This document shows positions 27,321 to 53,346 of a stretch of DNA of 64,000 nucleotides, piece by piece (position 1 is the stretch's first letter; each line of letters opens with the position of its first letter). The translations under genes and the position numbers were made by a program. The stretch lies in the NCBI GenBank assembly GCA_023231005.1, contig JALNWG010000014.1:9007-73006 (forward strand), written 5' to 3'. The stretch comes from Bacteroidales bacterium. GTDB taxonomy: Bacteria; Bacteroidota; Bacteroidia; Bacteroidales; FEN-979. Below the pieces are notes generated by a model. It saw only the letters and a program-made list of their open reading frames with translations. It had not been told where the DNA came from and made no database searches.

Positions 27321-28871
27321 TTAATCTTCGATAGGGAATTTCGGTTTGTTTTCGAAAAGGTAATTCCCAACATTCTGGATTTCTTTGTATTTTGAAGTAT
27401 CTTCAGTGAATTTCGGAATGATCCTTCTAAGATCTTCAAATTTTTTAAGGGAATATGAGGAAAGTTGTGATTTGAATTCAAGGAATTCAATAGCCTGCAG
27501 AATGGTAATCATGTGGATCGACAATACATGGTAGGTGTTATCAATGACCCTTTTCGTTAGTAAAGCCGCATTGGTACCCATACTGACAATATCCTGGTTA
27601 TCATTATTATTGGTTATGCTATGAAGATACATTGGAAAGGATAGGGTTTGGTTTTCGGCCACTGTGGAAACAGCAGCAAACTGAACGCCCTGCATCCCCA
27701 GGTTGAGGCCTAATTTTCCGAGGTTGACAAAAGGGGGAAGTTTCATATTTAATTTATCGTTCAGCAGGTAATTCAACTGCCGTTCGGCGAGCATGGAAAG
27801 TTTGGTGATCGCAATTTTCAGTTTGTCCATCTCCAAGGCAACATAATCGCCATGAAAATTTCCACCATGGAAAACGTTTTTTGCCACGTCATCGATAATG
27901 GGATTGTCGTTGGTTGAATTCACTTCATTGATCAAGACTTTTTCGGCATTCAGAATGGTATCAAGAATGGGACCCAGTACCTGAGGTACGCAACGAAGAG
28001 AATAATATTCCTGAACTTTATGCTTAAAAATTTCTATTTCATCAGTTTTACCATTATATAAATGGTCAGCTCTGTGTCGGATCAGTTTGCTATCCTTCAA
28101 AATTGAACGCATGATCCGGGCAACTTGTATTTGTCCATAATGGTGCTTGACCTTATTCAGTCCTTCACTGAAATGGTCATCATAAGATTCAACGATTTCA
28201 TTGACCATAGAAGAAGCTAGGATTGCCCAATCCAACAGGTTCTTTGCATGGACCAGATTGATCATTCCGATACCTGTCATTGCGGAAGTGCCATTGATAA
28301 GGGAAAGGCCTTCCCGTATGTGCATTTTTATCGGGATCAATCCTTCTTTTTCAAAAATATTCGCGGTAGGTTGGATCTTCCCTTTATACCACATTTCTCC
28401 TTCTCCGATCATATTCAAAGCCAGATGGGCAAGTTGTACAAGGTCGCCGCTGGCACCAACTCCACCATGTTCCGGAATATAAGGATTGATATTGCGATTG
28501 ATCAGTTCTTGAAGAAGAAGTACACATTCAACATGGATACCGGATCTGGCCTGCATCAACGTGTTTAATCTTGCCAGCATGGTTGCTTTGGCATAAATTT
28601 CAGGAAGAGGATCTCCGCAACCTGAACTATGGCTGCGAATCAGGTTATATTGAAGTTGAAGTTCACTATTGGTGTCGATTTTATATTGAGCCATCGGACC
28701 AAGTCCGGTATTGATTCCGTAAATCACCTTTCCCTTTGCAAATTCTTTCAGGAATTCATAATTTTTTTTAACTTTTGTAACTGCAGCGGGATCGAGATCA
28801 ATCTTTTCACCAAGAAAAAGAACTTTAAAGAAATCGTCGGGTGTAAGTTTCTGCGCGCCTACTCTTATCAT
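27321..28871 (-). CDS. aromatic amino acid ammonia-lyase (MIO-dependent HAL/TAL family), probable tyrosine ammonia-lyase for the aryl starter
   Basis: MIO-forming GGVGASGDLVQLAH, plus NTGLGPMA and NDNQDIVSMG. It is the first gene of the operon, and there are no hut genes nearby. Confidence 0.85.
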   Translation of the reverse strand: MIRVGAQKLTPDDFFKVLFLGEKIDLDPAAVTKVKKNYEFLKEFAKGKVIYGINTGLGPMAQYKIDTNSELQLQYNLIRSHSSGCGDPLPEIYAKATMLARLNTLMQARSGIHVECVLLLQELINRNINPYIPEHGGVGASGDLVQLAHLALNMIGEGEMWYKGKIQPTANIFEKEGLIPIKMHIREGLSLINGTSAMTGIGMINLVHAKNLLDWAILASSMVNEIVESYDDHFSEGLNKVKHHYGQIQVARIMRSILKDSKLIRHRADHLYNGKTDEIEIFKHKVQEYYSLRCVPQVLGPILDTILNAEKVLINEVNSTNDNPIIDDVAKNVFHGGNFHGDYVALEMDKLKIAITKLSMLAERQLNYLLNDKLNMKLPPFVNLGKLGLNLGMQGVQFAAVSTVAENQTLSFPMYLHSITNNNDNQDIVSMGTNAALLTKRVIDNTYHVLSIHMITILQAIEFLEFKSQLSSYSLKKFEDLRRIIPKFTEDTSKYKEIQNVGNYLFENKPKFPIED

Positions 28872-28991: not shown

Positions 28992-29065
28992 GGCCCCGTA
29001 GCTTAACTGAATAGAGCATCTGACTACGGATCAGAAGGTTGAGGGTTTGAATCCCCCCGGGGTCA
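28992..29065 (+). tRNA. tRNA-Arg (anticodon ACG)
   Basis: Cloverleaf folded by hand. Acceptor GGCCCCG pairs with CGGGGTC (one G-U). Anticodon stem TCTGA/TCAGA with loop CTACGGA. T-loop TTTGAAT. 74 nt, and CCA is not encoded. Confidence 0.85.
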
Positions 29066-29226
29066 CAAGAAAATCAATCACTTACAAGAAGTTCTCACTT
29101 GCTCCAGCTACCTAAACAATAACCCAACGGGTCTCCTTCATTATTACAAAGAATCTTTCGATAAATAATCAAATCACCTATTGACTTTCAGTATTTTAAA
29201 GTGTATATTTACCACACTTTAATATA

Positions 29227-29460
29227 ATGCCCGTAAATATGAAAAAGTTACTTTCTATTTTCTGGCTACTTGTGATTTGTATCACCCTTTCTGCTCAAAA
29301 TTCGGATTTTCTATCGAAAAAAGAATTCCTGGCCGAGAAGAAAAAAATAATGGAACCAGCCAGAGAGTTAAAAAAAATGACTTCAACCCAGAAAGAGGTC
29401 AACGACAGCGATATCAGTCGCAAATTTACTGAAATTGAAGGACGGAAATCAAATCATTGA
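29227..29460 (+). CDS. small hypothetical secreted protein, possibly an N-terminal remnant
   Basis: Signal-peptide-like MKKLLSIFWLLVICITLSAQ followed by a charged tail. Overlaps the 3' end of the convergent gene by 35 nt. Confidence 0.25.
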   Translation: MPVNMKKLLSIFWLLVICITLSAQNSDFLSKKEFLAEKKKIMEPARELKKMTSTQKEVNDSDISRKFTEIEGRKSNH

Positions 29461-32035
29461 CCACCCCGATCTTATAACCTTCCGAAAAATAGTGTATCCT
29501 TCCATCCGGGGTAATATACAGGATAAACGGCAATAAGGTATTTTCAGAATGTTTCATTGCAGCAATAACCATTTTCAAGGTCGATGGCTGTGCAATAAAG
29601 GTATGGATTCCATCTGGAAGTGTAGATTTGTATTTCTTTTCGAAATCATTTTTATCATTGATGTTTTTAAAGAGTAAGATCATCTTCCCATGCCATCGCT
29701 CAATCTCACTTTTTTTCTGCTCAAGATCAGCAATAAAATGCTTGGTAGGCTCTTTCTCCGGCTCCAGCCAGGCAAGGATCAATGGAATTCCTTGCCGGAT
29801 ACTAACTGAAGTATTTTCTTTCAGATCATTAATCAATGCTTTTACATCAATGGTTCCAAATACCGGAAGTGGTGCTAAATCTTTTCTCAGAAGGAGATCA
29901 GCCTCCTGTTTTTGATCTTTTTTAAGTTGAAAGGTGTGAAGGTTTACTAATACTTTTCCTCCCGATAAACGGCTTCCGGTAACGATCAGGTAATATCCAG
30001 GTGCAAGAGAAAGAGTACATGGAAAATTTTTAACCATCGGATCGGTTTCATAGTCCAATGAGCGGAAAAAACCATCTCCGTATTTTTCGATGGTAAAATG
30101 AACATAATATTCCGGGTTTATTCCATTTTTTTTATTGGACATTAGGGTCAAAGTACCCCGGGTATTGGAAACTTCTATTGGCTTTTCGAAATACACATCT
30201 TTCCATTTCCCATCTTTGGAATATTGTGGAATTTTTGTCCCAGGTTCCAGTCGCGCCGGGATATCAAAGCTGCGGCATAAAGCAACAAAAAGGATATCCA
30301 AAGAATGAAGATCGGTCACTTTCAATTCATACGAGCCAATCGGGGTAAGGGGAGCTCTGCCATAATTTGAACTATTATCGATCCGGATGTTGGCTTTCAA
30401 CCATACAACAAGCGAATCAGGCTGTTGTTGAAATTTCTTTACAAATTTCCCATCAATCTTCTTGTTAAAGAAGGATTTATAGGGTTTAAGCCATTCATTA
30501 TCTACCCGAGGAGATAAAATATCCGGATTGTTGCTTTTGGCTTGTATGATATTATCCGATAATACTTCCGTGGTTATATCGCGTAAATCCTTTTGAGAGA
30601 TACTTTGAAGTAAAGGGAAGATAAAAGATTTCTGTTGTTTGGAAACGCCTGTAATGAAATCAATGATCTCTCTCCAGTTTCCGCGAGAGCGTTTCAGGAA
30701 ATACCACAATGTGTCGGGATTCAATTGAAGTTGCTTTGCCAATCGGAAGGTTTTTGTTGAATCAATAAAAGTAGATTCATAATTGGATCTGATTTTATCT
30801 TCAAACTCAATTTTTTTGAGATTCAGGCTTTTTAATGAATCATTTGGTTTAACTTTTACAGCCATTTCGGGAGGAGGGGTAAGGTCAAATGCATCTGAAA
30901 TGTCCGTTCCCGGTTTCATCGAGAGCTTAATGATCGCAGTATCGGTTGATTTTACAGAGGCTTTGACATATCCGAATTTTCCGTTTTTTGAAGCCCAGAG
31001 TACGAGGTCGCCGTATCCTGTTAATAAAGAGGTGATCCCTTTATGATTTGTAAAATCTTTATGCAGCGGGTAAAATTCAGCATAATTGTAAAGCTGGAAT
31101 TCGACAATGGCACTGTCGACAGGGTGGTTATTATCATCCACTACTTTTGCATAAAGCCTTTTTGTTTCTGCATAGTTGGAGAGGATATTAATTTTCGTGT
31201 ACCGTTCATCTTTCTGCAAAATATCTTCCGGACCTTCATAATCGCCAAATACATTGGTATTTACAAGCATAGCACGTTTAGCAGGACCTGTGAACCAGGC
31301 TAGATCCAGATCAATATCCGGTTCACATGCACCGATAAAGTGCCATTTCCCGTCAACCCATACTTCAACCCAGGCATGATTATCATCACTATGGGCCCAC
31401 CGTGGTGTATAGCATTGACGCGCGGGAATCCCTACAGAACGGAGCGCTGCTACGGTAAAAGTAGACTCCTCGCCACAACGCCCGAAAGCAGTCTTTACAG
31501 TAGCTAAGGGAGACGAGGTCCGTCCATCTGTTCCCTGATACGTCACTTTTTCATGGCACCAGTGATTGACCTCCAGAACCGCATCCTTCATGGACAATTT
31601 TTTAATCCTGTCTTTCATCTCCATGAAAAAAATCCATCTGGAAGAATCAAGGTTTTCATTATTGACCCGGATTGGGAGTACAAAATGGCGAAAAAGGATC
31701 TCCGGTACCTTTTTCCCCCATTCAAATGTATCCCTTGCTGCAAAGGATGCCCTGACATTTTTCAGATAAAAATCCCCATTATAATCTGCCAGATCACTTA
31801 ATGGCATATAGGCATATAAAAATTCAAGTGCCTCTTTTTCTTTTAGCGATAATTTCTGGTCGAATACATGAAAAAGCTCTTCCTTGCGACTTCCGGCCAG
31901 CATTTTTTGCTTTTCAAATTGTGATTCTACCTTTTTACGATAGGTAGAATCCGTGATAAAATGTTTATTCCGGTTACAGGATGAGAAAAAGACAAGTAAA
32001 CCGAGAAGGAGGCAAAGCCAGACTGATTTTTTCAT
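29426..32035 (-). CDS. transglutaminase-core (Cys-His-Asp) domain lipoprotein, ~870 aa
   Basis: Lipobox in MKKSVWLCLLLGLLVFFSSC. Core reads FGRCGEESTFTVAALRSVGIPAR...DNHAWVEVWVDGKWHFIGACEPD. Start trimmed to the ATG at 32035, 5 nt after the MFS stop. Confidence 0.8.
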   Translation of the reverse strand: MKKSVWLCLLLGLLVFFSSCNRNKHFITDSTYRKKVESQFEKQKMLAGSRKEELFHVFDQKLSLKEKEALEFLYAYMPLSDLADYNGDFYLKNVRASFAARDTFEWGKKVPEILFRHFVLPIRVNNENLDSSRWIFFMEMKDRIKKLSMKDAVLEVNHWCHEKVTYQGTDGRTSSPLATVKTAFGRCGEESTFTVAALRSVGIPARQCYTPRWAHSDDNHAWVEVWVDGKWHFIGACEPDIDLDLAWFTGPAKRAMLVNTNVFGDYEGPEDILQKDERYTKINILSNYAETKRLYAKVVDDNNHPVDSAIVEFQLYNYAEFYPLHKDFTNHKGITSLLTGYGDLVLWASKNGKFGYVKASVKSTDTAIIKLSMKPGTDISDAFDLTPPPEMAVKVKPNDSLKSLNLKKIEFEDKIRSNYESTFIDSTKTFRLAKQLQLNPDTLWYFLKRSRGNWREIIDFITGVSKQQKSFIFPLLQSISQKDLRDITTEVLSDNIIQAKSNNPDILSPRVDNEWLKPYKSFFNKKIDGKFVKKFQQQPDSLVVWLKANIRIDNSSNYGRAPLTPIGSYELKVTDLHSLDILFVALCRSFDIPARLEPGTKIPQYSKDGKWKDVYFEKPIEVSNTRGTLTLMSNKKNGINPEYYVHFTIEKYGDGFFRSLDYETDPMVKNFPCTLSLAPGYYLIVTGSRLSGGKVLVNLHTFQLKKDQKQEADLLLRKDLAPLPVFGTIDVKALINDLKENTSVSIRQGIPLILAWLEPEKEPTKHFIADLEQKKSEIERWHGKMILLFKNINDKNDFEKKYKSTLPDGIHTFIAQPSTLKMVIAAMKHSENTLLPFILYITPDGRIHYFSEGYKIGVVNDLISVLQFQ

Positions 32036-32040
32036 TATCG

Positions 32041-33246
32041 TTATGCTTTTCGAAAGGTTGATATTGCACAATACCCAATATAAGTAACACATACAAGGGG
32101 AACAATAAAGCCGGTCAGCAAAGTGGTATTATCGGCTACCAATCCCATGATGGGAGGGATAAGCGCTCCACCAACAATTGCGGAGACCATGAGTCCCGAC
32201 AATTCGTTGGATCGCTCTGGCATACGATCAACCGTAATTGAGAAAATTAGTGGAAAAATATTTGCAAAACCCAGTCCTACCAAAATAATTCCGGTATATG
32301 CAAAAAATTTACTTCCCAGAAACATCATCAATATTCCAAGAAAAGATAAAATCACCGTTGCAATCAGGAATTTTTTAGGTGATAGCGATCGAAGGATTAG
32401 AGCGCCGGTAAAACGACCGACTAAAATCGGAAGAAAAAATAATGTCCAGGCTACTAATAAACCAAAGTTTTCGATTCCATATTTTTCTTTCAACAAAATG
32501 GGGATTCCGGAACTCATGGAAACTTCAGCGCCAACGTATACAAAGATGGCAGCAACCATCAATGCCACATACCCATTTCCGAGGAGTTTTAAACAGGCAA
32601 TTAAAGAGACTGGCTTTGAATCAGGATCACGTTTTTCTTCAATCTTTGTAAAATAGACCCAAACCAAAGTGATTAAAATCAGGATGGCATAAATCGGAAA
32701 CAGAATGGTCCAGTCAAGCCCCAGAGGTTTGGCAACCAACGGTGGGAGTAAAAATCCCATGGATGATCCGATGGCTTTGATGGATTGTCCCATTGACAGG
32801 TTACTGGAAAATTTCCCTTCGGGGGATACGTCCCGCATGATTGGATTTCCTGATACCTGAAGAATGGTAGCGCCTGCTCCTAACATAAGGATCGAAAACA
32901 ATAGAATATAAAATTCCCCACCAGAAGAGAGATTAAAGGCAATCACAGGACCATACATTCCATTGATAATCGGAATGAGTAATCCAATAAATGCAATGAT
33001 CAAACCTAAAATCAATAAAAACTTCTTTCCGCGATGTCCCTGTAAGACACCCATTGGTACCGAGAGTATACCAAACATGATAAAACCCATCAGGGGAAGT
33101 AATTGAGCCATGAAATTTGAGAGCTGGAATGATTCTTTGGCTAATCCGACCATTGGCCCAACCACATCGCCAAAGCCCATACAAAGAAACGCCATGAAAA
33201 TTGGGTAGGATTTTGACATCCCGTTTGCAGCGGTATTTTTCATCAT
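32041..33246 (-). CDS. MFS transporter, FucP / glucose-galactose (sugar) type
   Basis: ~12 predicted TM helices. The N-terminal pattern FLCMGFGDVVGPMVGLAKESFQLSNFMAQLL..SVPMGVLQGHRGKK resembles the FucP/GluP family. Confidence 0.75.
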   Translation of the reverse strand: MMKNTAANGMSKSYPIFMAFLCMGFGDVVGPMVGLAKESFQLSNFMAQLLPLMGFIMFGILSVPMGVLQGHRGKKFLLILGLIIAFIGLLIPIINGMYGPVIAFNLSSGGEFYILLFSILMLGAGATILQVSGNPIMRDVSPEGKFSSNLSMGQSIKAIGSSMGFLLPPLVAKPLGLDWTILFPIYAILILITLVWVYFTKIEEKRDPDSKPVSLIACLKLLGNGYVALMVAAIFVYVGAEVSMSSGIPILLKEKYGIENFGLLVAWTLFFLPILVGRFTGALILRSLSPKKFLIATVILSFLGILMMFLGSKFFAYTGIILVGLGFANIFPLIFSITVDRMPERSNELSGLMVSAIVGGALIPPIMGLVADNTTLLTGFIVPLVCVTYIGYCAISTFRKA

Positions 33247-33380
33247 AAATATTATTGTTAGTATTGAATGATAATTTCCGAATTGATCATGGGAATTTCT
33301 GTACTTCTTTCTTACCCTGACTTGAGTTTTAACATATAATCTTTGCCATTTGTTAATTGTCCATTTTCAATTTTAAATTG

Positions 33381-35762
33381 TCATATTGACTGATGTTCTG
33401 TTCGTTTAATTATTTCATTTTGAAGATCTTCACCAAGATCATTAAAATAATCGCTATAACCGGCAACCCGTACAATCAAGTCACGGTGTTTTTCGGGAAA
33501 TCGTTGGGCATCACGCAGCGTCTCTGCCGAAACTACATTAAACTGAATATGGTGACCATCCATTCTAAAGTAGGACCGGATTAATGCAGTCAGTTTTGTT
33601 ATACTCTCTTCGTTTTCAAAAAAATCGGGAGAAAATTTCTGATTTAGCAAAGTACCACCGGTTCTGAGATGATCCAGTTTTGCAGCGGATTTAAGTACCG
33701 CAGTCGGTCCTTTTTGGTCGGCACCCTGAACCGGTGAAATTCCTTCTGATAGTGGCTCTCCCGCCAACCGGCCATCCGGCAAAGCGCCGGTTACACTTCC
33801 AAAGTAAATATGGGAAGTGGTGGGTAACAAATTAATGCGGTGGATCCCTCCAATGGCAGTCGGATGTCCGTTAACTGCCGTGTAAAAAAGATCAAAAACT
33901 TCCCTGGCCCGGTCATCAGCAAAATCTTCGTCATTTCCATATTTTGGGGTATGGTAAACCAATTCCGCCCTCAACTCTTCAAAATCTGTAAAGTTCTGTG
34001 TCAAAGCTTTTATTATCCCTTTCATGCTCACTGTTTTTCGGTCAAAAACATGGTATTTAAGAGATGTGAGGGAATCGGTGATACTTCCTAATCCTACTCC
34101 CTGGATATAGGTTGTGTTGTATCGCGCCCCACCGTTATTGTAATCAGTTCCCTTGGTAACACAATCATCAATGATCAGTGAGAGAAAAGGAACCGGAATG
34201 AGGTCGGCAAAAATACGGTTGATAAGGTTGTTCCCTTTAATTTTTATTTGAATGAAATGATTTAGTTGAATACGGAAAGCATTTAGGAGATCCTGATACG
34301 TTTCAAATGCCTCCGGATTTCCGGTAGAGGGTCCGATTTGTTTGTTGAGACATGGATCCATGCCGTTGTGCAACGTGATCTCAAGAATTTTTGGAAGGTT
34401 GAAATATCCACTTAGAATGTATGCTTCTGTTCCAAAGGCTCCTGTTTCAACACAACCGCTGGCACCACCGTTACGGGCATCGATGAGATCTTTTCCCTGG
34501 CGGAGGAGTTCCTGAATGATGGCATCGGAATTAAAATAGGAAGGCTGCCCAAAACCAGTCTTAGTGATCTGTAAAGTGCGTTGAATGAAACGATCGGGAC
34601 TTTTTTTACTAATCTGAACCATGGAGCTTGGTTGAAGTAACCGCATCTCTTCAATTACATCCAATAAAAGATACGTCAATTCATTCACACCATCTGATCC
34701 ATCGGGTTTGAGACCACCCAGGTTGATCAATGCAAAATCGGTATAGGTATTGCTTTCCAGAGCAGTCACTCCGACTTTTGGTGGTGCTGGATGGTTGTTG
34801 AATTTGATCCAGTAACTTTGCAAAATTTCCATTGCTGCATCCCGGCTGAGGGATCCATCTTCAATTTCCCGTTGATAAAAGGGAAATAAATGCTGATCCA
34901 GGCGACCTGGATTAAATGAATCCCATGGATTGAGTTCGATGACTACTCCAAGATGGACAAACCAATAATACTGTAAGGCTTCATGAAAAGTATGTGGAGC
35001 ATGAGCAGGAACCCGATGGCAAATTTCAGCAAGCTCCTGTAATTCACGACGTTTAATCCTTAATGCATCACTGTTAGCAGTAATCTGTCCAGCCAATACT
35101 TCCAATTTTTCAGCATGACGTTCCGCATAAAGAATCACAGCTCTGGCAGTGATCTCCATGGCTTTAAGCTCTTCATTCTTTTCGTAAGCATGGGGATCAT
35201 TGATCCAGTCGAGGGAAGCCTTTGATCTTTCGACATCCTGAATAATGTCGAGCATTCCTTTATGATAAATTTTATTTCCGGCCACGGTATGCCCTGGTGC
35301 CCGTTGTTCCATAAATTCCGTAAAAATACCAGCTTTATATGCCTGTCTCCATTCTTCCGGGAGGGTGCGCATGATCCGGTCTCGGTTACTTCTTCCTTGC
35401 CAGAACGGAATAATTTTATCCCGATAGATTTCTTTTGTTGTCTGATCTACCTTGAATGATACTTTTTTCCGTGAGTTAAGTATTTCCAGATCTTCAAGTG
35501 AGTGAAGGTTGATTTCGGGATAGGTAGATACGGCTTTAGGCGCTGGTCCACGCTCGCCGACAATCAGCTCGCCTTCATTTATGCAAATATGTTTATTTTT
35601 TAATATATATTCAAAAGAAAGCGCTCGCATTACTGGAACAGAAACTTCCCGGTCGATACCGGTACTATAGAAATCCGTTACCAACAACGCTCTTTCAGGA
35701 TTGATACAATTCACTGCATCCAGGCTTTGTTTCCTGAGTTTTTTAATACGGTCGGTCATCAT
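33381..35762 (-). CDS. glycyl radical enzyme, dehydratase/lyase (eliminase) class; substrate unknown
   Basis: Glycyl loop VRVAGYSDYF near the C-terminus. Cys loop GASGCVETG has a single Cys plus Glu, not the CC of pyruvate formate-lyase. The ORF-track start at 35780 is TTG; the first ATG is at 35762. Confidence 0.9.
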   Translation of the reverse strand: MMTDRIKKLRKQSLDAVNCINPERALLVTDFYSTGIDREVSVPVMRALSFEYILKNKHICINEGELIVGERGPAPKAVSTYPEINLHSLEDLEILNSRKKVSFKVDQTTKEIYRDKIIPFWQGRSNRDRIMRTLPEEWRQAYKAGIFTEFMEQRAPGHTVAGNKIYHKGMLDIIQDVERSKASLDWINDPHAYEKNEELKAMEITARAVILYAERHAEKLEVLAGQITANSDALRIKRRELQELAEICHRVPAHAPHTFHEALQYYWFVHLGVVIELNPWDSFNPGRLDQHLFPFYQREIEDGSLSRDAAMEILQSYWIKFNNHPAPPKVGVTALESNTYTDFALINLGGLKPDGSDGVNELTYLLLDVIEEMRLLQPSSMVQISKKSPDRFIQRTLQITKTGFGQPSYFNSDAIIQELLRQGKDLIDARNGGASGCVETGAFGTEAYILSGYFNLPKILEITLHNGMDPCLNKQIGPSTGNPEAFETYQDLLNAFRIQLNHFIQIKIKGNNLINRIFADLIPVPFLSLIIDDCVTKGTDYNNGGARYNTTYIQGVGLGSITDSLTSLKYHVFDRKTVSMKGIIKALTQNFTDFEELRAELVYHTPKYGNDEDFADDRAREVFDLFYTAVNGHPTAIGGIHRINLLPTTSHIYFGSVTGALPDGRLAGEPLSEGISPVQGADQKGPTAVLKSAAKLDHLRTGGTLLNQKFSPDFFENEESITKLTALIRSYFRMDGHHIQFNVVSAETLRDAQRFPEKHRDLIVRVAGYSDYFNDLGEDLQNEIIKRTEHQSI

Positions 35763-35805
35763 ATTCGGGTACTTAGACAATTTTTCACAAATATAACTGA
35801 AAATA

Positions 35806-36621
35806 CTAACCTCCGATTTTCACTTTCACACCAATCGATTCCAATTCATTCTTCAAAGGAATCATGGACTCTTTTGTTAGTCCTTGTATATTCTGAAGGA
35901 GATTATTTTTTTTGAAGCGATGGTATTTTTCCCGTGCAATGGTATGATAGGGGAGAAGATCAATTTCAAGATTCCAGGCTTTACTTCCTGAATCATTAAA
36001 GGATCGCAGAAGATCCTTGATTTTAGCGATATTTTTCTGAGTATTCGTGATTCCGGGAATAACTGGAAAACGAAGAATGATCCTTTTTCCTCTTTCGAAA
36101 AGAAAAATGAGATTTTCAAGGATTCCTTGATTATCTACCCCGGTGTATTTTTTATGGTCCTCTAAATCCATCAATTTCAGATCATATAAAAACAGATCCA
36201 CAAATTGAGAAATCTTGCTGATCATTTCGCGGGAAGCGTACCCTGAGGTGTCCAGTGCAGTACGTAATCCCTGCCGTTTACATTCGGTCAGCAAGTCCAA
36301 CAAAAAAGCACCTTGCATCAGCGGTTCGCCCCCGGAAAAAGTAACGCCTCCACCTGACTCTTCGTAAAACATCCGGTCAAGCATTACTTCCTTCATGACT
36401 TCATCTACTGTCATGAGTATCCCTGTTGTTTCCGTCTTTTCGATTTTTTTTCCTGATAAGATCAGTCTCCGGATCGATTGTTCTGATTTGAAGTCCTGGC
36501 TTTCAGGGTTATGACACCACCAGCATCGGAGCGGACAACCCTTGAAGAAAACGGTTGTCCGGATACCCGGTCCATCATGAACTGTGAACCGTTTGATATC
36601 GAAGATCAGTCCATTAATCAC
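35806..36621 (-). CDS. glycyl-radical enzyme activating protein (radical SAM)
   Basis: DGPGIRT followed by CPLRCWWCHNPES (CX3CX2C). GTG start overlaps the M64 stop by 8 nt. No Cys-rich ferredoxin-like insert. Confidence 0.9.
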   Translation of the reverse strand: MINGLIFDIKRFTVHDGPGIRTTVFFKGCPLRCWWCHNPESQDFKSEQSIRRLILSGKKIEKTETTGILMTVDEVMKEVMLDRMFYEESGGGVTFSGGEPLMQGAFLLDLLTECKRQGLRTALDTSGYASREMISKISQFVDLFLYDLKLMDLEDHKKYTGVDNQGILENLIFLFERGKRIILRFPVIPGITNTQKNIAKIKDLLRSFNDSGSKAWNLEIDLLPYHTIAREKYHRFKKNNLLQNIQGLTKESMIPLKNELESIGVKVKIGG

Positions 36622-37945
36622 AATAAAACAGGATCATTTTCCGAATGGCATCCTGGCAAACGGGGCAAAACCCGGGTGCTTCATTGGACTTCATACGGCA
36701 ATCCATCTTTGGACTATATATTCCTTTCGAGAGATAGCCTCCTCCTTCAAACATCCCGACAGTGGATTTAAAATTCTCATTTCTTGGCGTTGGGATTGGG
36801 ATCCCTGCAGGAACCATTTTTTTCCATTTGGTTTCAAAATTCACATTCGATGTGATATTTGGTTCCCAAGGTTCAAACTTTAAGTTATAAAAATCAGAAT
36901 AAGCGACATCTGAAGTATAATATTCGTCAGCCAGACCGGCAAATGAATGACCAAATTCATGAATGGCAACGATTTTAGACAACTGATGGTCAACAGTACT
37001 TTGACCATAATGGTTATAAAACCCTCCTCCGCCATATCGTTTGCTGTTTACGAGTATAAAAATGGCATCGTAGGGGACATTAGCGGCAATGTCGTATACC
37101 GATTTGGTGTCGAAAGTAGTCAGATACCTGTCCATATCAAAAGTGTAAAAACTGCTATGGATATTGGTGTTAACATAAATATCTTTTCCCGGGATGGTGA
37201 TTCCTGCTTCATCCGAAGGAGATTCAATGGCATAGAAGTTAAACCGGTCGGAAAAATCGGAATAAGGGGTAACCGACATGATGTAATCGCACATTTTTTT
37301 GGCATCTTCCAGGAATTTATCCATGTCTCCCTGGGTATATCCCTCCGCGATAAAGGCAATATCCACCATCTTGGCAGGATCTCCAGATTCCTTTATTTTG
37401 GTCACTTTAGCTGCATGAATGTTCTCATGATTGATAAAATAGTCAGAAGGGCTGATGAAACGTTCGAAGATTGGTTCAAATCGATTGGTTTCATAAGATC
37501 TTTTCTCAATGATGAACCGGATGGTGTTTTTAGGAAAAGGAAGAACGGCGGTCATCGATAACGCACGCTTCATCTTTCTGGCTTCATCCGTACCTTTCCA
37601 TTCCTGAAAAACCGAATTAAATCCGCGTGAAAAAATCATGATATTTGAGGCAGAATCAAAAGCTACATAGCGGTAACTACCATAACCGAATGGATCAATG
37701 AGATTCTTATGTGGCCCACCCCAAAAGGGTTCCTGTTTCATTTGACTAAAATAAACCACTTCCGATTTGGCATCTCCTCCCAAAAAATAGTCCACACGAA
37801 GGGTTTTTGATATAAAATATTTCTCAAATTCCAGATTTGCTGCCAACGCTGGAGTAGCTGCAACAGCAGTGACTCCGGTTTGACTATAAACATAAGGGGA
37901 AAAGAGTAAGATTAAAAAAACTTGAAGAACAAATCTATTTTTCAT
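36614..37945 (-). CDS. M64 (IgA-peptidase-like) zinc metallopeptidase
   Basis: Signal peptide. HEFGHSFAGLADEY zinc site. Overall layout matches M64 family proteins. Confidence 0.8.
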   Translation of the reverse strand: MKNRFVLQVFLILLFSPYVYSQTGVTAVAATPALAANLEFEKYFISKTLRVDYFLGGDAKSEVVYFSQMKQEPFWGGPHKNLIDPFGYGSYRYVAFDSASNIMIFSRGFNSVFQEWKGTDEARKMKRALSMTAVLPFPKNTIRFIIEKRSYETNRFEPIFERFISPSDYFINHENIHAAKVTKIKESGDPAKMVDIAFIAEGYTQGDMDKFLEDAKKMCDYIMSVTPYSDFSDRFNFYAIESPSDEAGITIPGKDIYVNTNIHSSFYTFDMDRYLTTFDTKSVYDIAANVPYDAIFILVNSKRYGGGGFYNHYGQSTVDHQLSKIVAIHEFGHSFAGLADEYYTSDVAYSDFYNLKFEPWEPNITSNVNFETKWKKMVPAGIPIPTPRNENFKSTVGMFEGGGYLSKGIYSPKMDCRMKSNEAPGFCPVCQDAIRKMILFYCD

Positions 37946-37977
37946 ATTCAGAAGATTAAATTCTGATCAACAAATGA

Positions 37978-40923
37978 TCACTCAACTGTTATTTCATCCA
38001 CAAAAATCCATGCTTTTTTACCGGCCCCCAGGTGCCAGGGAGGACAAATGCCACGGTTTTTAGCAACAACTTTGACATACCGGATTTTCTCGGGTTTAAA
38101 ATCGAAGGTGAATTCCTTGACCATAGAGCCATCTACCTTTTCCGGAACATCATTTATTATGGTTTCTGCCAGCTTATAATTCACCCCGTCAGATGAAGTG
38201 AAAAAACTCACCTCTTCCGGCATGAATATCCAGGCAGACTGTTCCTGATAGCAACCCAATCCAAGATGACGGATCGTTAGGTCTTCACCAAGGTCGATCA
38301 CTGCATTGAGATCTACCCCTTCATATCCCTGCCATTTTCCAGTGCGGAAATCATTGCCACCCCGTTGAAAATCAATCAACGCCAGTTCGCCTCCGGCAGA
38401 ATATTGGCCGGCAGGAGTAGTATTCAGCGTGATTTTCCGATTTTTCGGAATCTGGATAAAATGGGCTTCCATGATAAAACTTTTTGGCATATCGGGTTTG
38501 TATGCCATCGCTTTCAGAGTTGTGGTCTTGGAAATTCTGAATGGCCGTTGATAAACAGTCGATTTTATTGTGGGATCAGATCCATCAAGGGTATATAGAA
38601 TATAAGCGCTTTCAATGGGACTTGAAAGGGCAATCATCGTGTTATCGATAAAAGTTGGCTGGCCGATTTCCACTGACGGAACGGGGATGGTTAGATAGTC
38701 TGAAATTCTGGAAGGAGGAGAAGCTCCAGCTCCCACTCCCCACGCTTTATTGGGTGTTGAACCCATGTTGAAAACCATCTCTCCTCCTTTTAAAATATCC
38801 TCATGCGAAAGATAGGTTCTGGAACATGGTTTTCCATTTAATGAGGCAGACTGAATATAAAAATTCTGATCACCAGCATTGTTAGCCCTGATCGTAAAGG
38901 TCTTCCCGTTTTCGAGGGTAATTACAGCTTTCGGAAACAAAGGAGAACCGATTGCATAGTTTCCTGAACCTGGAGTAACCGGGTAAAATCCCATCGCACT
39001 TAACACATACCAGGCTGACATTTGACCGCAATCTTCATTTCCAATCAAACCATCAGGATCATTTTTATAGAAATCATGACAAATCTTATGGATCAGTTCC
39101 TGTGTTTTCCAAGGACAGCTAACATAATCGTACAAATAAGCCATGTGATGGCTGGGTTCATTACCATGGGCATATTGGCCAATCATTCCGCTGATATCAG
39201 ATTGTTCCCTGCCGGTTGTTTTAGAATTGGTCGAGAATAGTGAATCCAACCGGGCCTTAACCCTGTTGCGTCCTCCTGACAGAGCAATAAAAACCTCCAT
39301 GTCTTGAGGAACATAAAGACTATATTGCCATGCGTTGGCTTCAGTATAATTGAAATTGACCTCAAAAGGATCGAAAGGAGTAAACCAGGTTTCGTTTTTC
39401 TTCGCCCGGAAAAATCCTGTTGAATTATCATACAGGTTCTTATAATTTTGTGCCCGACGGATGTACGTTTTATAATCCTCTTGTTTCCCCATAGCATGTG
39501 CCATCATGGCAATACACCAATCATCATAAGCATACTCGAGTGTTTTAGAAACGGATTCACCTTCCTGATCAGCAGGAATATACCCCTTTGTCTGGTAATA
39601 TTTTAGTCCGAGATGGTTCTGTTCTGCGCTATGTTTCATTGCAGTCAGCGCCAATAAGGTATCGTAACCTTTGATGCCTTTCTGGAAAGCATCAGCAATA
39701 ACTGAAACAGAGTGATACCCAATCATACAGCCTGTTTCATTACTTGAGAGTTCCCATACCGGTAACATACCGCCTTCCTGGTATTGACGCAAAAAAGTCC
39801 GAATAAAATCGTTGGTACGGGCCGGCTCGATAATGGTATACAACGGATTTGCAGCACGGTACGTGTCCCATAAAGAGAAAACGGTATAGTAATCAAATCC
39901 ATCGGTTTGATGAATTTTAAGATCCCTGCCACGGTACTGACCATCCACATCATTATAAATATTGGGTTGAAGCATGGTGTGGTACAAAGCAGTGTAAAAA
40001 ATAATCCTTTGATCATGAGTACCGCCTTCTACTTTGATCTTGCCCAATTCTTTATTCCAGGTGAGTGCAGCCTGGTTGGCAATGGCAGAAAAATCCCAAC
40101 CAGGGATTTCAGATTCCAGGTTTTTCCGGGCACCTTCGATACTTACGCCTGAAATACCCACTTTTACAAGAATTTTTTCCTGGTTTGTGGTTGTGAAGGT
40201 AAAAAATGCCTTGATATCTTCCCCGGAAATCTCTCTCCAATCAGATGAAGTCTCTGAACCTTTTGCCAAAGTAAATGTTTTAAAAGGCTTGGAAAAGCGT
40301 GCCACAAAGTATATCATTTGTTTATCAGCCCAATTCTGGGAAATCCGGTATCCTTCCACTTCGTCTGACCCGGTTACTTTTAATCCTGATTCCAGGACTT
40401 TATCCCGGTGTTTTAAATCCAGTACAATATTTGCCTCGCTGGAGGCAGGAAAAGTATAGCAATGAAACCCCACCCTGGCACTGGCCGTCAGCTCAACCTT
40501 GATCCCATATTTTGTCAAATCGACGCGATAATAGCCGGGCGAGGCAACTTCATCCGATTTCCGAAAAGGAGAAGAATATGCATAGATGGTCAGGTTCACT
40601 TTTCCAATTACCGGCATAATCAGTATATCTCCATAATCAGAACATCCGGTACCGCTAAGGTGGGTATGACTGAATCCATAGATAACCGAATCAGTACCAT
40701 GATAAGCGGAACATCCATCCCAACCCTTCAAGCGGGTATCCGGACTTAACTGAACCATTCCAAAAGGAACTGAAGCCCCTGGAAAGGTATGACCATGCCC
40801 TCCCGTTCCAATAAAAGGATTAACATAGTCGGTAAGGGAAGCCGGTTGCTGCCCCTGAGTCAGAAATGATGATAACAGGATCATTCCCAAATAAAATGAT
40901 TTTTGAAATAATTTTCCAGTCAT
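37978..40923 (-). CDS. GH92 alpha-mannosidase with C-terminal Fn3-associated / discoidin-like domains
   Basis: NPFIGTGGHGHTFPGASVPFGMVQLSPDT is the characteristic GH92 N-terminal block. YTLDGSDPT lies in the C-terminal extension. Confidence 0.85.
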   Translation of the reverse strand: MTGKLFQKSFYLGMILLSSFLTQGQQPASLTDYVNPFIGTGGHGHTFPGASVPFGMVQLSPDTRLKGWDGCSAYHGTDSVIYGFSHTHLSGTGCSDYGDILIMPVIGKVNLTIYAYSSPFRKSDEVASPGYYRVDLTKYGIKVELTASARVGFHCYTFPASSEANIVLDLKHRDKVLESGLKVTGSDEVEGYRISQNWADKQMIYFVARFSKPFKTFTLAKGSETSSDWREISGEDIKAFFTFTTTNQEKILVKVGISGVSIEGARKNLESEIPGWDFSAIANQAALTWNKELGKIKVEGGTHDQRIIFYTALYHTMLQPNIYNDVDGQYRGRDLKIHQTDGFDYYTVFSLWDTYRAANPLYTIIEPARTNDFIRTFLRQYQEGGMLPVWELSSNETGCMIGYHSVSVIADAFQKGIKGYDTLLALTAMKHSAEQNHLGLKYYQTKGYIPADQEGESVSKTLEYAYDDWCIAMMAHAMGKQEDYKTYIRRAQNYKNLYDNSTGFFRAKKNETWFTPFDPFEVNFNYTEANAWQYSLYVPQDMEVFIALSGGRNRVKARLDSLFSTNSKTTGREQSDISGMIGQYAHGNEPSHHMAYLYDYVSCPWKTQELIHKICHDFYKNDPDGLIGNEDCGQMSAWYVLSAMGFYPVTPGSGNYAIGSPLFPKAVITLENGKTFTIRANNAGDQNFYIQSASLNGKPCSRTYLSHEDILKGGEMVFNMGSTPNKAWGVGAGASPPSRISDYLTIPVPSVEIGQPTFIDNTMIALSSPIESAYILYTLDGSDPTIKSTVYQRPFRISKTTTLKAMAYKPDMPKSFIMEAHFIQIPKNRKITLNTTPAGQYSAGGELALIDFQRGGNDFRTGKWQGYEGVDLNAVIDLGEDLTIRHLGLGCYQEQSAWIFMPEEVSFFTSSDGVNYKLAETIINDVPEKVDGSMVKEFTFDFKPEKIRYVKVVAKNRGICPPWHLGAGKKAWIFVDEITVE

Positions 40924-40928
40924 GATTT

Positions 40929-43457
40929 TTAATATGAGTCAATAAGTGAGATAATCTTAACAAAATCCTCATTTTTAATATTTTTTTCAGAAGTATAGAA
41001 TTTTACTTTGTACATTTTACCTGGTAAAATATCAAAATAATTATTCGAAAAATCTCCTTTAACATCCGTAGACAGATAAGCATTTTTAACCAATTTATCC
41101 GCGGTGATCTGAATAAAGAACCCATCGCCACTGGGGAGTTCTGTAATTTTTTTGGTAATTTCAGGAGCAGATAGTTTCAAATTCTTTGGTGCAGCAAAAT
41201 AAAGCAGGTTCCCGTTTAAGTATTCATCTAATCCTATAGAGGAAGCAGAAAAAACGACAGATGCCGTATCATAATTGGCTAAAAGAGCCGATTGAAGAGT
41301 ATCATAATAAACGAGGGAGCTATTAGCGGGAATGGTAACAGAATATAATTCATCACATAATATTTTTCCGGAAAAATCTTGTAATTGAATATGCATCGCC
41401 CTTTTTTGCGGCATGATGTCATCCGAAACAATATAGACTTTGATATGTCCATTTTCTAAGACAGGAGAGAATATTACATCATCATACTGATGTCGAGATT
41501 CGAAATACAAGGCTTTTTTCCGGCCATAATAATCGCGGGCTGACCAGGAAACTACCGGCCAACAATCATTTAACTGCCAATACAGACTACCCATACAAAA
41601 AGGTTTAGCCCTCCGTTGAGCCTGGATGGCAGAGCCGATCCCATTAGCTTGTACTAATTGACTAACATAAAGATAGGATTCGAAGTTCTTGGGCTGTTTA
41701 TAATCTCTCAAAAGATATTCATCAATCGTTTCATAGCCAACCGGATGTTTCTGATGGGCTTTCATTACCGTTGATCCCAGTTTCCGGTCGTCGGGCAGTG
41801 TGAATTTTTTAATGGTTGAGAGACTGGGAAAACCCTGGAATCCGAATTCAGACATGAAACGGCCAACCTTTTGTGTGTATTTGCTAAACGGTTCCTTAGC
41901 CCACCAAACGCCCCAGTAATGCGAATCTCCCTCTGTCATACTGGAAGCCTCACCCCACCCATGTAAAGGGGAGGAGGGAATATATGGCCGCAGGGAATCG
42001 AAACGACGAATGGTGACGGGAAGTATCCGGGCGAATAGCATTCGGTAATCTTTATAAACCGATGCTGAATCTTCGGCAGAATAGCCATATTGTTTTTGCC
42101 AACCCCAGTTCTTCCATCCTTCTTCCACTTCATTGTTTCCACACCACAAAGCGATACAAGGATGTTGACGTAATCGTACCACATTCTGAATCGCTTCTGC
42201 CTTCACATTTTCAAAAAAGTCCTTGGTGCCGGGATTCATAGCACAAGCGAACATAAAATCCTGCCATACCAGGATCCCATTTTCATCACAAAGATCATAG
42301 AAAATATCATTTTCATAAATTCCACCGCCCCAAACCCGGAGCATATTCATATTTGCATTTTTTACATCCTTAATGAGTGCATGATACGTAGAGTCCTTGA
42401 CCCTGGGAAGAAAATTATCCTGAGGAATATAATTTGCACCCTTCATATATACCGGGATGCCATTAACTTTAAAATAAAATGATTTGCCAATAGAATCCTT
42501 TTCCTGTACCAGTTCTATCCTCCGTAATCCGATTCTCTGCTTGCCTTCTCCAACCAACTGATCCCCAAAATAAACTTCATATTTAAAATTGTACAAATTG
42601 GGTTTTCCTATTTTATTGGGCCACCATAATAGAGGATTAACGATGGTGAACTGACCACGAATAAGATTCGGGCCCGTGTTCAGAATAACATTTTGGCGCA
42701 GTATTTCAATAGTATCATTGTATAACCTGATCTGGGCCGAATCACCCAATTGTGAAAAGATCGTGAATTGAGCATCAATTTTTGCCATCGAATCTGTGAT
42801 CGACTTTTGGATAAAGTTGACCCCAAGTACTTTTACATAGGTCCAGTGATGGATATAAATTGGCTTCCATATTCCACTGGTAATAAAGGTAGGCCCCCAA
42901 TCCCAACCATACTCGTAAGCCGCTTTCCTTGATACTACCCGCTCATCACCAGGAAGTTTATATTTTAATTGACCATACCTTGATTTATTCTCACCTACAA
43001 CGGCAGGGAATTGAATCCTGAGGGTATTCTCTCCGATTCGTAAAAAACGCCGGATGTCGGCATACCATTCCCGGAACATATTATCGGCAACAATGACCAG
43101 GGAATCATTTAAATACACATTTGCGTATGTATCCAATCCTTTGCATACCAACTCCATATTCCGCCATTCAAATTGCTTCACATTATAATTAAATGTTTTT
43201 TTATATTCCCACCCAACTTCTCCGATCCATTGAAGTTTCCCTTCATTATCTCCAAAATAAGGATCCGGAATGATTTTATTTCGCATTAAATCCAGATGTA
43301 CTACTCCTGGAACTGTTGCTGGGAGCCATTCTTTACTCCCAGCACGCCTGAACTGCCAATTCCCTCCCAAATCCATAATATTCAATTCCTGAGCATCAGA
43401 AAGTTCAGAAGCCATGACAAAAAGTGCAGTGACAAAAAAGATCAGAAAGCGGCGCAT
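40929..43457 (-). CDS. GH2 beta-mannosidase
   Basis: WCGNNE (acid/base) and MSEFGFQG (nucleophile) blocks. Start trimmed to MRRFLIFFV (ATG at 43457), which provides a signal peptide. Confidence 0.8.
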   Translation of the reverse strand: MRRFLIFFVTALFVMASELSDAQELNIMDLGGNWQFRRAGSKEWLPATVPGVVHLDLMRNKIIPDPYFGDNEGKLQWIGEVGWEYKKTFNYNVKQFEWRNMELVCKGLDTYANVYLNDSLVIVADNMFREWYADIRRFLRIGENTLRIQFPAVVGENKSRYGQLKYKLPGDERVVSRKAAYEYGWDWGPTFITSGIWKPIYIHHWTYVKVLGVNFIQKSITDSMAKIDAQFTIFSQLGDSAQIRLYNDTIEILRQNVILNTGPNLIRGQFTIVNPLLWWPNKIGKPNLYNFKYEVYFGDQLVGEGKQRIGLRRIELVQEKDSIGKSFYFKVNGIPVYMKGANYIPQDNFLPRVKDSTYHALIKDVKNANMNMLRVWGGGIYENDIFYDLCDENGILVWQDFMFACAMNPGTKDFFENVKAEAIQNVVRLRQHPCIALWCGNNEVEEGWKNWGWQKQYGYSAEDSASVYKDYRMLFARILPVTIRRFDSLRPYIPSSPLHGWGEASSMTEGDSHYWGVWWAKEPFSKYTQKVGRFMSEFGFQGFPSLSTIKKFTLPDDRKLGSTVMKAHQKHPVGYETIDEYLLRDYKQPKNFESYLYVSQLVQANGIGSAIQAQRRAKPFCMGSLYWQLNDCWPVVSWSARDYYGRKKALYFESRHQYDDVIFSPVLENGHIKVYIVSDDIMPQKRAMHIQLQDFSGKILCDELYSVTIPANSSLVYYDTLQSALLANYDTASVVFSASSIGLDEYLNGNLLYFAAPKNLKLSAPEITKKITELPSGDGFFIQITADKLVKNAYLSTDVKGDFSNNYFDILPGKMYKVKFYTSEKNIKNEDFVKIISLIDSY

Positions 43458-43538
43458 AAATTTTTTTTTGACAAAATTATCAATTTCCAGCTTATCTTTT
43501 TTTATTACTTTAGACAACGAATCTCAAACGTCTCTTCT

Positions 43539-44714: not shown

Positions 44715-44733
44715 TCCACTAACTTAATTTCTT

Positions 44734-45582: not shown

Positions 45583-45598
45583 CTGGATCAGAAAAAAA

Positions 45599-46756: not shown

Positions 46757-46962
46757 GACCAGAAGATTATAAATCATTACAAACCTACTCAAAATTGAAG
46801 AAACAAAATACATTATTGGTACTTTTACGGATGAAAAGTAATGTCATCCTTTGAGAACAAATCACTAGTGATCGTTACTCTGGCCAATGTCCCCTGGTTT
46901 CTTTTCCCGATTTTTCTTGTTTGGAAGATCTGGAAAAACGAATATCCTTTTTTTCGTGAATC

Positions 46963-48198: not shown

Positions 48199-48415
48199 GA
48201 GTGAAAGATATGTTAATTGAAGATGAGATTGATTTTAACGATTTTCGGACAGTTATCTAATCTAAAAAAACAATATTGAGAATTGGTATGAGGTTTCCTG
48301 ACTTCACAACGATTTTGTTCCTTTATGTTTTTTTTACGACTACAAAGATACCGTTTCATGGAAATATAAATTTATATTTGTTAGGTGAATTCGTTTCTTA
48401 AACCCACATTAACTC

Positions 48416-50146: not shown

Positions 50147-50212
50147 AACACATCAATATGTTGCTACGTCACACTGTTACCACAACATCTTTTTTACAAA
50201 AAATCAAACGAA

Positions 50213-50425: not shown

Positions 50426-50426
50426 T

Positions 50427-50918: not shown

Positions 50919-50931
50919 TGAAACAGCCTTT

Positions 50932-51837: not shown

Positions 51838-51846
51838 ATTACTGAA

Positions 51847-53334: not shown

Positions 53335-53346
53335 CTGGCAAATGTA

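Follow-up and report, generated by a model that had tools for sequence, protein, structure and literature searches.

Which enzymes supply bacteria outside the clostridia with free Hyp (trans-4-hydroxy-L-proline) from proteins? The discoverers of HypD, the glycyl radical enzyme (GRE) that dehydrates Hyp, posed this question explicitly, and HypD-bearing Bacteroidetes have been predicted to possess proteases and other hydrolases that release Hyp from glycoproteins, the identification of which was called a challenge (Huang et al. 2018; PMC6219649). The same question is raised by a 64,000-nucleotide stretch of DNA from a Bacteroidales bacterium of the FEN-979 lineage (assembly GCA_023231005.1, contig JALNWG010000014.1, positions 9,007 to 73,006; hereafter the window), in which a GRE and its radical S-adenosylmethionine (SAM) activating enzyme (activase) lie among genes for secreted mannosidases and a peptidase. 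The cluster comprises seven open reading frames (ORFs), all on the minus strand, in the order glycoside hydrolase family 2 (GH2) beta-mannosidase, GH92 alpha-mannosidase, M64 metallopeptidase, activase, GRE, major facilitator superfamily (MFS) transporter and a lipoprotein with a transglutaminase core (TG). The genes, order, strand and gaps (5, 32, -8, 43, 134 and 5 nt) described in an initial annotation made from the sequence alone were reproduced exactly when we re-measured them, and Pfam and NCBIfam agree with the family assigned to each of the seven genes. Judging from the translations, GH2, GH92 and M64 carry signal peptides and the GRE and activase do not. We find that the GRE is a HypD and that the arrangement recurs in a clade of related HypD loci. 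The reading toward which we lean, with modest confidence, is that the locus is a clade-conserved system for salvage of Pro/Hyp-rich glycopeptides from which freed Hyp is fed to HypD.

The glycyl radical enzyme is HypD

HypD is among the most abundant GREs of anaerobic communities. The GRE of the window (33381..35780, minus strand; likely start ATG at 35762, with an upstream TTG at 35780) scores 1224.1 bits against the NCBIfam equivalog for trans-4-hydroxy-L-proline dehydratase (NF043068; cutoff 1100), covering profile positions 1-783 of 784, and its scores against the other GRE equivalogs fall far under their cutoffs. Among solved structures, Clostridioides difficile HypD (PDB 6vxc) matches at 1013 bits and the next family, glycerol dehydratase, at 537, with the newer hydroxyproline-derivative enzymes HpyG, HpzG and HplG scoring lower than glycerol dehydratase; the score to HypD is about twice that to glycerol dehydratase, HpyG, CutC or PflD/YbiW. 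The protein is 54% identical to C. difficile HypD over 781 aligned residues, and 15 of 15 active-site residues are identical (F152, R156, H160, W277, D278, K326, S334, D339, F340, C434, V435, E436, Y450, T645 and G765 in C. difficile numbering), all of them named as catalytic or substrate-contacting by Backman et al. (PMC7077986). His160, Asp278, Ser334, Asp339, Phe340, Tyr450 and Thr645 correspond to H164, D287, S343, D348, F349, Y459 and T654 of the window protein, which also has the glycine radical loop RVAG774YS and the Cys loop C443-V-E445 (CXE) within Pfam Gly_radical and PFL-like domains. By these sequence measures, the GRE is a known HypD and is predicted to perform no new radical chemistry.

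This assignment bears on the initial annotation, which had proposed an undescribed radical step acting on a sugar, a deoxy-sugar or amino-sugar, or a modified amino acid such as hydroxyproline. An uncharacterized eliminase that takes a sugar, deoxy-sugar or amino-sugar freed by the glycosidases would indeed be a new radical step, and the sole point in its favor is the context beside GH2, GH92 and a FucP-like MFS. We consider it highly improbable: the HypD equivalog hidden Markov model is matched above its curated cutoff, the bit score is roughly double that for glycerol dehydratase, HpyG, CutC or PflD/YbiW, and the HypD-specific binding and catalytic residues are all kept, including Asp278, Asp339, Ser334 and Phe340, which set HypD apart from other GRE eliminases and are lacking in them. 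The proposal of an undescribed step is therefore contradicted; hydroxyproline survives from the list of substrates, and the sugars are very unlikely because the model, the identity and the active-site residues all point to HypD. The comparison with characterized GREs that the annotation had called for thus places the enzyme tightly with HypD. Two observations had been named there as jointly counting against the idea, namely tight clustering with a characterized family and a synteny unique to this genome; the first is what we found and the second is not, since the gene order is conserved across a clade.

The gene order is conserved within one HypD clade

We examined HypD loci in one genome per GTDB species, keeping the 80 best loci (locus labels beginning with L) and searching them by tblastn with the seven window proteins, and we combined these with a TG-centered view that comprised three TG homologues on long contigs and a metagenome scan returning 80 further loci. 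The activase-HypD pair is essentially universal among the 80 HypD loci, and GH2-GH92-M64 precede it only in L001, L003, L004 and L005; L006 shows M64-activase-HypD at a contig end. These five loci are the closest relatives of the window cluster (72-74% HypD identity). In these, an EamA transporter separates GH92 from M64, HypD is followed by a GH31 gene that replaces the MFS, and four of the five have an opposite-strand outer-membrane beta-barrel gene between activase and HypD. In the TG-centered view, the three long-contig TG homologues all directly follow HypD-GH31, and cluster genes are present in all 13 loci where TG is at least 53% identical (three on long contigs and ten from the scan), compared with 2 of the 70 loci where it is at most 51% identical.

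Together, variants of GH2-GH92-(EamA)-M64-activase-HypD-(GH31)-(MFS)-TG were found in 13 loci (L001, L003-L006, L084-L086, L089, L091, L093, L095 and L096). The visible order is EamA-M64-activase-HypD-GH31-TG in L085, M64-activase-HypD-GH31-MFS-TG in L086, GH92-EamA-M64-activase-HypD-GH31-TG in L089 and M64-activase-HypD-TG in L093, and the GH31 gene, which in these relatives resembles glucosidase II, stands between HypD and TG in 10 loci. In a neighbor-joining tree of 88 HypDs (the partial sequence from L096 was left out), the cluster-bearing HypDs form a single clade of at least eight sublineages with 72-76% pairwise identity, while the genes outside the cluster vary between loci. Because the cluster-bearing HypDs form one clade and the outer flanks differ, the block is retained as a whole across a clade of uncultured Bacteroidales. 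The arrangement, recurring as it does in 13 other loci of a monophyletic HypD clade, is more than a chance juxtaposition, and the glycosidase link noted in the initial annotation is not peculiar to this genome.

The names of the relatives' metagenome-assembled genomes (MAGs) and contigs suggest, as names alone, lake and other environmental samples. One of the loci, L005, comes from a MAG labelled Alphaproteobacteria, but its HypD shares 98% identity with the one from Bacteroidales L003, and the gene order is the same, probably reflecting mis-binning. A contig of a 'Promethearchaeia' MAG (L071) carries a bacterial-type HypD with 63% identity; L020, L025 and L044 are listed alongside L005 and L071.

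A probable post-proline peptidase adjoins the radical pair

The M64 metallopeptidase (36614..37945, minus strand) is a predicted secreted enzyme with Pfam M64_N and Peptidase_M64 domains that matches BACOVA_00663 (PDB 3p1v) at 385 bits and BF3526 (PDB 4df9/9qdi) at 344 bits and is far from IgA proteases. Its catalytic Zn site (H329, E330, H333, D340) maps onto the BF3526 ligands at a constant offset, and a second, structural Zn site (E341/C416/C427/C430) maps onto them as well. The domains and Zn ligands argue for a BF3526-type (CL-I) member, with post-proline trimming as its probable activity. BF3526 does not cut intact IgA, and instead trims pre-digested Pro-rich peptides from the N-terminus, preferably after proline, as in VP|CP|VPSTPP (PMC12402451).

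The M64 gene is physically tied to the radical pair. Its stop and the GTG start of the activase share the octamer GTGATTAA, so the overlap reported in the initial annotation is real, and the 8-nt overlap is conserved in five lineages. In 12 loci the M64 gene immediately precedes that of the activase, the gap ranging from -8 to +43 nt; one of these, L012, is outside the clade, and its M64 is just 44% identical.

Peptidases accompany HypD more widely. When we clustered the neighbors of all 80 HypD loci and counted peptidases within the fetched flank, at least one proline-directed or dipeptide peptidase was present in 36 of the 80. M24 Xaa-Pro peptidases were found in 22 loci, often directly downstream of HypD, followed by S37/S28 (11 loci), M64 (7), DPP-IV (6) and C69 (5). 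Three loci (L009, L013 and L028) carry activase-HypD-DPP-IV-M24-S37/S28-C69 in a row and in one direction, and L003 has an M49 peptidase downstream of HypD. Since peptidases are common outside the clade and glycosidases almost never stand beside HypD there, the robust association is that of HypD with peptidases, and the glycosidases are clade-specific. The HypD-peptidase pattern in Bacteroidota and related phyla predicts a route from peptide to Hyp to pyrroline-5-carboxylate (P5C).

Mannosidases, a transporter and a large lipoprotein complete the cluster

The GH2 protein (40929..43457, minus strand) contains Pfam Glyco_hydro_2_N2, Mannosidase_ig and Ig_mannosidase domains and matches the beta-mannosidase structure PDB 2je8 at 712 bits over residues 21-832. 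This architecture and similarity suggest a BtMan2A-like (BT0458-like) beta-mannosidase; we take 2je8 to be BT0458 of Bacteroides thetaiotaomicron, presumably part of its complex N-glycan locus. The GH92 protein (37978..40923, minus strand) scores 759 bits against TIGR01180 (cutoff 250), has Pfam GH92N and GH92 domains and matches PDB 6f8z at 657 bits, pointing to an alpha-mannosidase. Its C-terminus consists of CHB_HEX_C/Fn3_assoc and an F5/8 type C module and resembles the beta-hexosaminidase 6q63.

The MFS transporter (32041..33246, minus strand; Pfam MFS_1) is distantly similar to FucP/GluP/NagP-type sugar:H+ symporters, scoring 75 bits for both fucP and gluP, far under their cutoffs. Its homologues lie directly upstream of TG in L090, L092, L095, L086 and L108. 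Close ones (72-74%) adjoin TG in L092, whose cluster has no HypD; in L090, MFS-TG alone is visible, at a contig end, and in L108 a distant MFS lies within a fucosidase/hexosaminidase cluster. Because the protein is distantly FucP/GluP/NagP-like and stays with TG where HypD is absent, it is more likely an importer of sugar than of Hyp, and the suggestion that it takes up the GRE substrate is probably incorrect.

TG (29426..32035, minus strand), an 869-aa protein of several domains whose predicted lipoprotein cysteine is residue 20, is one member of a very large family of Bacteroidota lipoproteins of ~870 aa (at least 8000 candidates, all past the threshold) that are annotated just as transglutaminase-like putative cysteine proteases. 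Pfam (Transglut_core) reports two stretches of the core domain. The motifs GRC187GE, H220 and G235-A-C-E-P vary little or not at all across the family, with Cys187 and His220 invariant. An AlphaFold2 model (mean predicted local distance difference test score 84, with low confidence in the catalytic region) orders the domains as TG core, 3e8v-like beta-sandwich, helical region, an apparent second TG-like unit and a C-terminal thioredoxin-like fold, the beta-sandwich and thioredoxin-like assignments coming from Foldseek. Judging from the pattern of secondary structure and a near-invariant Cys587, residues 560-869 seem to include a second, degenerate TG-like unit around that cysteine as well as the thioredoxin-like fold. 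A CXXC motif was not seen in the thioredoxin-like fold, where EPEKEPTKH occupies the usual site.

Could TG supply the deglycosylation step that the cluster otherwise lacks? As a peptide:N-glycanase (PNGase)-like amidase with a transglutaminase fold, it would free the trimmed glycan stub from Asn. A single-sequence search does match mouse and yeast PNGases (2f4m, E=0.003; 1x3w, E=0.16), with the GRCGE and ACE motifs in common, TG closes the cluster in its mannosidase and its fucosidase/hexosaminidase versions alike, and the cluster has no other endo-acting deglycosylating enzyme. The family profile, however, loses the PNGase matches and finds as its best hit a generic TG-like putative cysteine protease (3isr, E=0.012); the position of the PNGase catalytic Asp is occupied by the invariant Gly235; and the top Foldseek matches include no PNGase, although the low confidence of the catalytic region keeps the fold test from being decisive. 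The 70 loci with more distant TG homologues, found in unrelated contexts, also speak against it, and neighbors of distant TGs (a Na/H exchanger, a CutC-family protein, a SpoU methylase and GldN) were uninformative on TG function. We therefore regard a PNGase-like role as speculative and improbable.

The activase is of a short type

The activase (35806..36621, minus strand; 271 aa, GTG start) passes the general GRE activase model TIGR02494 (279 bits, cutoff 174) and fails its best equivalog, the HypD activase model NF043069 (T4HPD_activ_SAM; 295 bits, cutoff 425). The NF043069 match comes in two stretches, the better of which spans profile positions 97-299. The protein contains four cysteines in all (29, 33, 36 and 114), and the 8-Cys ferredoxin-like insert that follows CX3CX2C is absent, which explains why the match is split. 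On these sequence grounds we class it with the GRE activases, as a short subtype, and do not count it as a member of NF043069. This form is widespread: about 60 of 73 activases of HypD loci have 0-3 Cys within the 75 residues after the motif, whereas those of Aminicenantes, 'Eubacteriales' and Anaerolineae HypD loci have 7-9 Cys within those 75 residues. The HypD activases labelled Bacteroidota, Ignavibacteriota and Calditrichota are short (~262-270 aa) and have no 8-Cys ferredoxin-like domain. In the HypD loci of Bacteroidota and Ignavibacteriota, the short activase is the usual form. According to a 2026 review, a radical-SAM domain alone is known solely for PFL-AE, the activase of pyruvate formate-lyase, and for that of the class III ribonucleotide reductase (PMC13450708). 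The short activases are relevant to a wider question in the field, the role of auxiliary clusters in GRE activases.

The start of this gene affects how it is read. A European Nucleotide Archive gene call on the metagenome contig of the window (ERZ27247350 k141_860903, also present in the MAG GCA_028707595.1) begins the activase at an internal Met, giving a 202-aa protein (window 36014-36621; L081:11532-12140) without CX3CX2C. The full ORF has Cys29/33/36, and relatives align with it over the whole length, so the longer start, given in the initial annotation, is the better one. The shorter start is a misannotation, one that would keep domain searches from finding the activase.

Transcription signals leave room for a separate HypD promoter

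Scans of the cluster for sigma-70 promoters and intrinsic terminators returned counts at the level of shuffled sequence, without enrichment, and no terminator-like hairpins were seen in the cluster gaps. The Bacteroidetes -7 box TAnnTTTG has six matches on the cluster strand, about as expected by chance; two fall in ~300 nt of intergenic sequence where ~0.15 would be expected, which is suggestive only. One (TAATTTTG, 43472..43479, minus strand) lies 22 nt upstream of the GH2 ATG. The other (TATATTTG, 35788..35795, minus strand) falls between the activase and HypD, 33 nt upstream of the ATG of the latter, and may be an internal promoter ahead of HypD. In five relatives (L001, L003, L004, L005 and L095), HypD must have its own promoter because an opposite-strand gene separates it from the activase. 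Given this box and the relatives' opposite-strand genes, HypD of the window may likewise have a promoter of its own, and a single operon is unproven. A scan against Rfam found no element inside the cluster, and flanking it a tRNA-Arg only; this tRNA-Arg (ACG; 28992-29066, plus strand) and a small opposite-strand ORF mark the downstream boundary of the cluster.

A model for salvage of hydroxyproline from glycopeptides

The cluster may hold the enzymes that free hydroxyproline from glycoproteins, namely a proline-directed peptidase and mannose-trimming glycosidases. We propose that GH92 and the BtMan2A-like GH2, acting in the periplasm or on the cell surface, would remove alpha- and beta-linked mannose from N-glycan-type chains, a trimming that the glucosidase-II-like GH31 of relatives and the GH29 and GH20 of L108 would extend. 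The BF3526-type M64 would then clip Xaa-Pro or Xaa-Hyp units off the Pro-rich peptides so exposed, at their N-termini, and TG might serve as an additional peptidase or amidase for this material, the weakest step of the scheme. Released sugar would be imported by the sugar-type MFS. Hyp, free or in dipeptides, would enter through an importer encoded outside the window, and a dipeptidase encoded elsewhere would free it from dipeptides. By analogy with the C. difficile enzyme, the activase would set a glycyl radical on Gly774, and the Cys443 thiyl radical would take a hydrogen from C5 of free Hyp, with loss of water yielding P5C. A housekeeping ProC would reduce P5C to proline, or P5C would be oxidized to glutamate. 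Algal or plant hydroxyproline-rich glycoproteins (HRGPs) and collagen-derived glycopeptides are both plausible substrates, and the data favor neither. A narrower version, in which the locus is dedicated to the catabolism of hydroxyproline-rich N-glycoproteins (for example, cell-wall HRGPs of algae or plants in anoxic freshwater), strikes us as rather unlikely.

The alternative is that two independent functions lie side by side: a hydrolase/EamA/MFS/TG module that scavenges N-glycans and mannosides, and an amino-acid module of activase and HypD, perhaps with M64, that was inserted into the first module in an ancestor of the clade and passed on ever since, with HypD using free Hyp from any source. 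Natural variants resemble its parts. L092 (L092:3-12631) carries GH2-GH92-EamA-M64-(opposite-strand ORF)-MFS-TG and lacks the activase, HypD and GH31, and the more distant L108 (L108:1-11057) carries GH92-EamA-GH29 fucosidase-GH20 hexosaminidase-MFS-TG, a glycosidase version with no M64 or HypD. The opposite-strand genes between activase and HypD in five loci and the promoter-like box upstream of HypD fit this alternative as well, as does the fact that most HypD loci have peptidases and no glycosidases (74 of the 80 in the genome scan lack GH2, GH92 or TG beside HypD). So does the published report that carbohydrate genes do not generally accompany those for BF3526-type (CL-I) M64 enzymes (PMC12402451), a generalization that this locus contradicts. 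Against it, the block persists across at least eight sublineages with 72-76% HypD identity while the outer flanks change, and M64 is physically joined to both halves, with GH92 or EamA upstream and the overlapping activase start downstream. Furthermore, the position of GH31 between HypD and TG in 10 loci means that the radical pair is interleaved with the glycosidases and not appended to them. Two independent modules are possible on these data, though in our judgment this is not the probable explanation.

Several further observations, together with L092, the interrupted activase-HypD pairs, the scarcity of glycosidases beside other HypDs and the reported isolation of CL-I M64 genes, weigh against glycopeptide salvage. 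The coupling between hydrolases and HypD is proposed from synteny alone. Because every glycosidase-bearing locus falls in a single clade, part of the conservation could reflect common descent, and the box before HypD means that the cluster could be transcribed in more than one piece. Upstream of HypD, L084 carries neither M64 nor activase, and tblastn found neither in the 3.8 kb upstream of HypD in L002. TG homologues at or below 51% identity occur in 70 loci, including human-gut contigs, in unrelated contexts. No Plug/TonB_dep_Rec or SusD domain occurs among the window genes with precomputed Pfam hits, so there is no SusC/SusD pair, and by the criterion of adjacent SusC/SusD genes the cluster is not a Sus-like polysaccharide utilization locus (PUL). 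The cluster contains no endo-glycosidase, recognized PNGase, prolidase or evident amino-acid or peptide importer, and neither proC nor another P5C-handling gene is among the genes called in the window.

Glycopeptide salvage nonetheless makes a testable case, from gene neighborhoods, for a conserved genomic link between glycoprotein breakdown and anaerobic Hyp catabolism. If the narrower, HRGP-dedicated version held, the locus would be the first genetic link of glycan trimming, post-proline peptide trimming by M64 and radical dehydration of the freed Hyp, and the 'missing' enzymes that release Hyp in Bacteroidota would have names. That version would further give a first function, as glycopeptide amidase or peptidase, to the very large family of ~870-aa TG-core lipoproteins, and would mean that an activase without auxiliary Fe-S clusters is able to activate a HypD-type GRE. 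The locus offers clonable candidates (the BF3526-type M64, the two mannosidases and TG) as well as natural variants with and without HypD.

Genes flanking the cluster

Directly downstream, at window ~3600-28871 on the minus strand, lies a large cluster of the flexirubin/aryl-polyene type for a lipid pigment, with a FlxA tyrosine ammonia-lyase (28871..27321; 832 bits, cutoff 700) and FabG-like, several ketoacyl synthase, acyl carrier protein, ABC transporter, LolA-like, ApeP/ApeI-like and thioesterase genes. The same pigment cluster stands after TG in L084. Upstream of GH2, the divergent region 43539-55491 contains a galactokinase (43539-44714, plus strand), PPK2, a galactose-1-epimerase-like gene (46813..45599), an M23 peptidase and a sodium:solute symporter (SSF; 48416-50146, plus strand), followed by three small genes, a GH172 gene (53334..51847) and a GH63/MGH1-like gene of alpha-glucosidase type (55491..53347). 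A 305-aa radical-SAM/Fer4_12 protein (56890-57807, plus strand), faintly PFL-AE-like, adjoins a homologue of C1-type peptidases.

Three of the genes in the window were considered as possible partners of HypD and rejected. The SSF transporter scores 75 bits against a PutP cutoff of 515 and sits with galK and galM, so it was not accepted as a PutP-type Pro/Hyp importer. The radical-SAM gene at 56890-57807, with 31.6 bits to PFL-AE, is not an alternative GRE activase. An ArgD-family aminotransferase (61080..59896), considered as a P5C-related gene, is ~16 kb off the cluster and not linked to it.

Comparison with known systems

The enzyme is already known; what is new is the genomic context, a HypD with a peptidase and glycosidases. 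We found no description of a HypD-peptidase-glycosidase cluster in the literature searched, subscription-only papers lying outside that search. The bacterial enzymes HypBA1, HypBA2 and HypAA are arabinofuranosidases of the GH121/GH127/GH43 type. The HypBA1-HypBA2-HypAA genes of Bifidobacterium and Xanthomonas, which serve the use of Hyp-linked arabinooligosaccharides (PMC6085000), are conceptually the closest system, being bacterial genes aimed at hydroxyproline-rich glycoproteins. Those enzymes, however, act on Hyp-O-arabinosides, none of them is in the window cluster, and their genes are not linked to HypD.

The C. difficile locus of HypD, its activase and, in part, P5C reductase (Levin 2017; Backman 2020; PDB 6vxc/6vxe) shares with the window the enzyme family, the RVAGYS and CVE loops and an adjoining radical-SAM activase. 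It differs in that the window has no nearby proC and an activase without the 8-Cys ferredoxin-like domain, and in that the C. difficile locus has Stickland-type partners, whereas the partners in the window are secreted glycosidases, M64, an MFS and a TG-core lipoprotein. The HypD loci L007-L080, from other Bacteroidota, Ignavibacteriota and related phyla, have in common with the window a short activase directly upstream and proline-directed peptidase neighbors, but their peptidases are M24, S37/S28, DPP-IV or C69 and they have no GH2, GH92 or TG, whereas the window clade combines M64 with glycosidases. The window M64 shares with BF3526 and BACOVA_00663 the M64_N beta-sandwich, the catalytic domain and all Zn ligands; homologues of BF3526 are reported without carbohydrate-active neighbors, whereas the window M64 is flanked by GH92 and overlaps a GRE activase.

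Finally, the window cluster bears similarity to Bacteroides N-glycan loci, for which we take BT0455-0461 (the complex N-glycan locus) and the high-mannose PUL as references. Both kinds of locus have a BtMan2A-like GH2, a GH92 and an F5/8 type C (CBM32-like) module as in 6q63, to which L108 adds GH29 and GH20. Where the Bacteroides loci have SusC/SusD, GH18, a PNGase F-type enzyme and a sensor/regulator, none of which is present in the window cluster, the latter has a peptidase and a glycyl radical enzyme with its activase.

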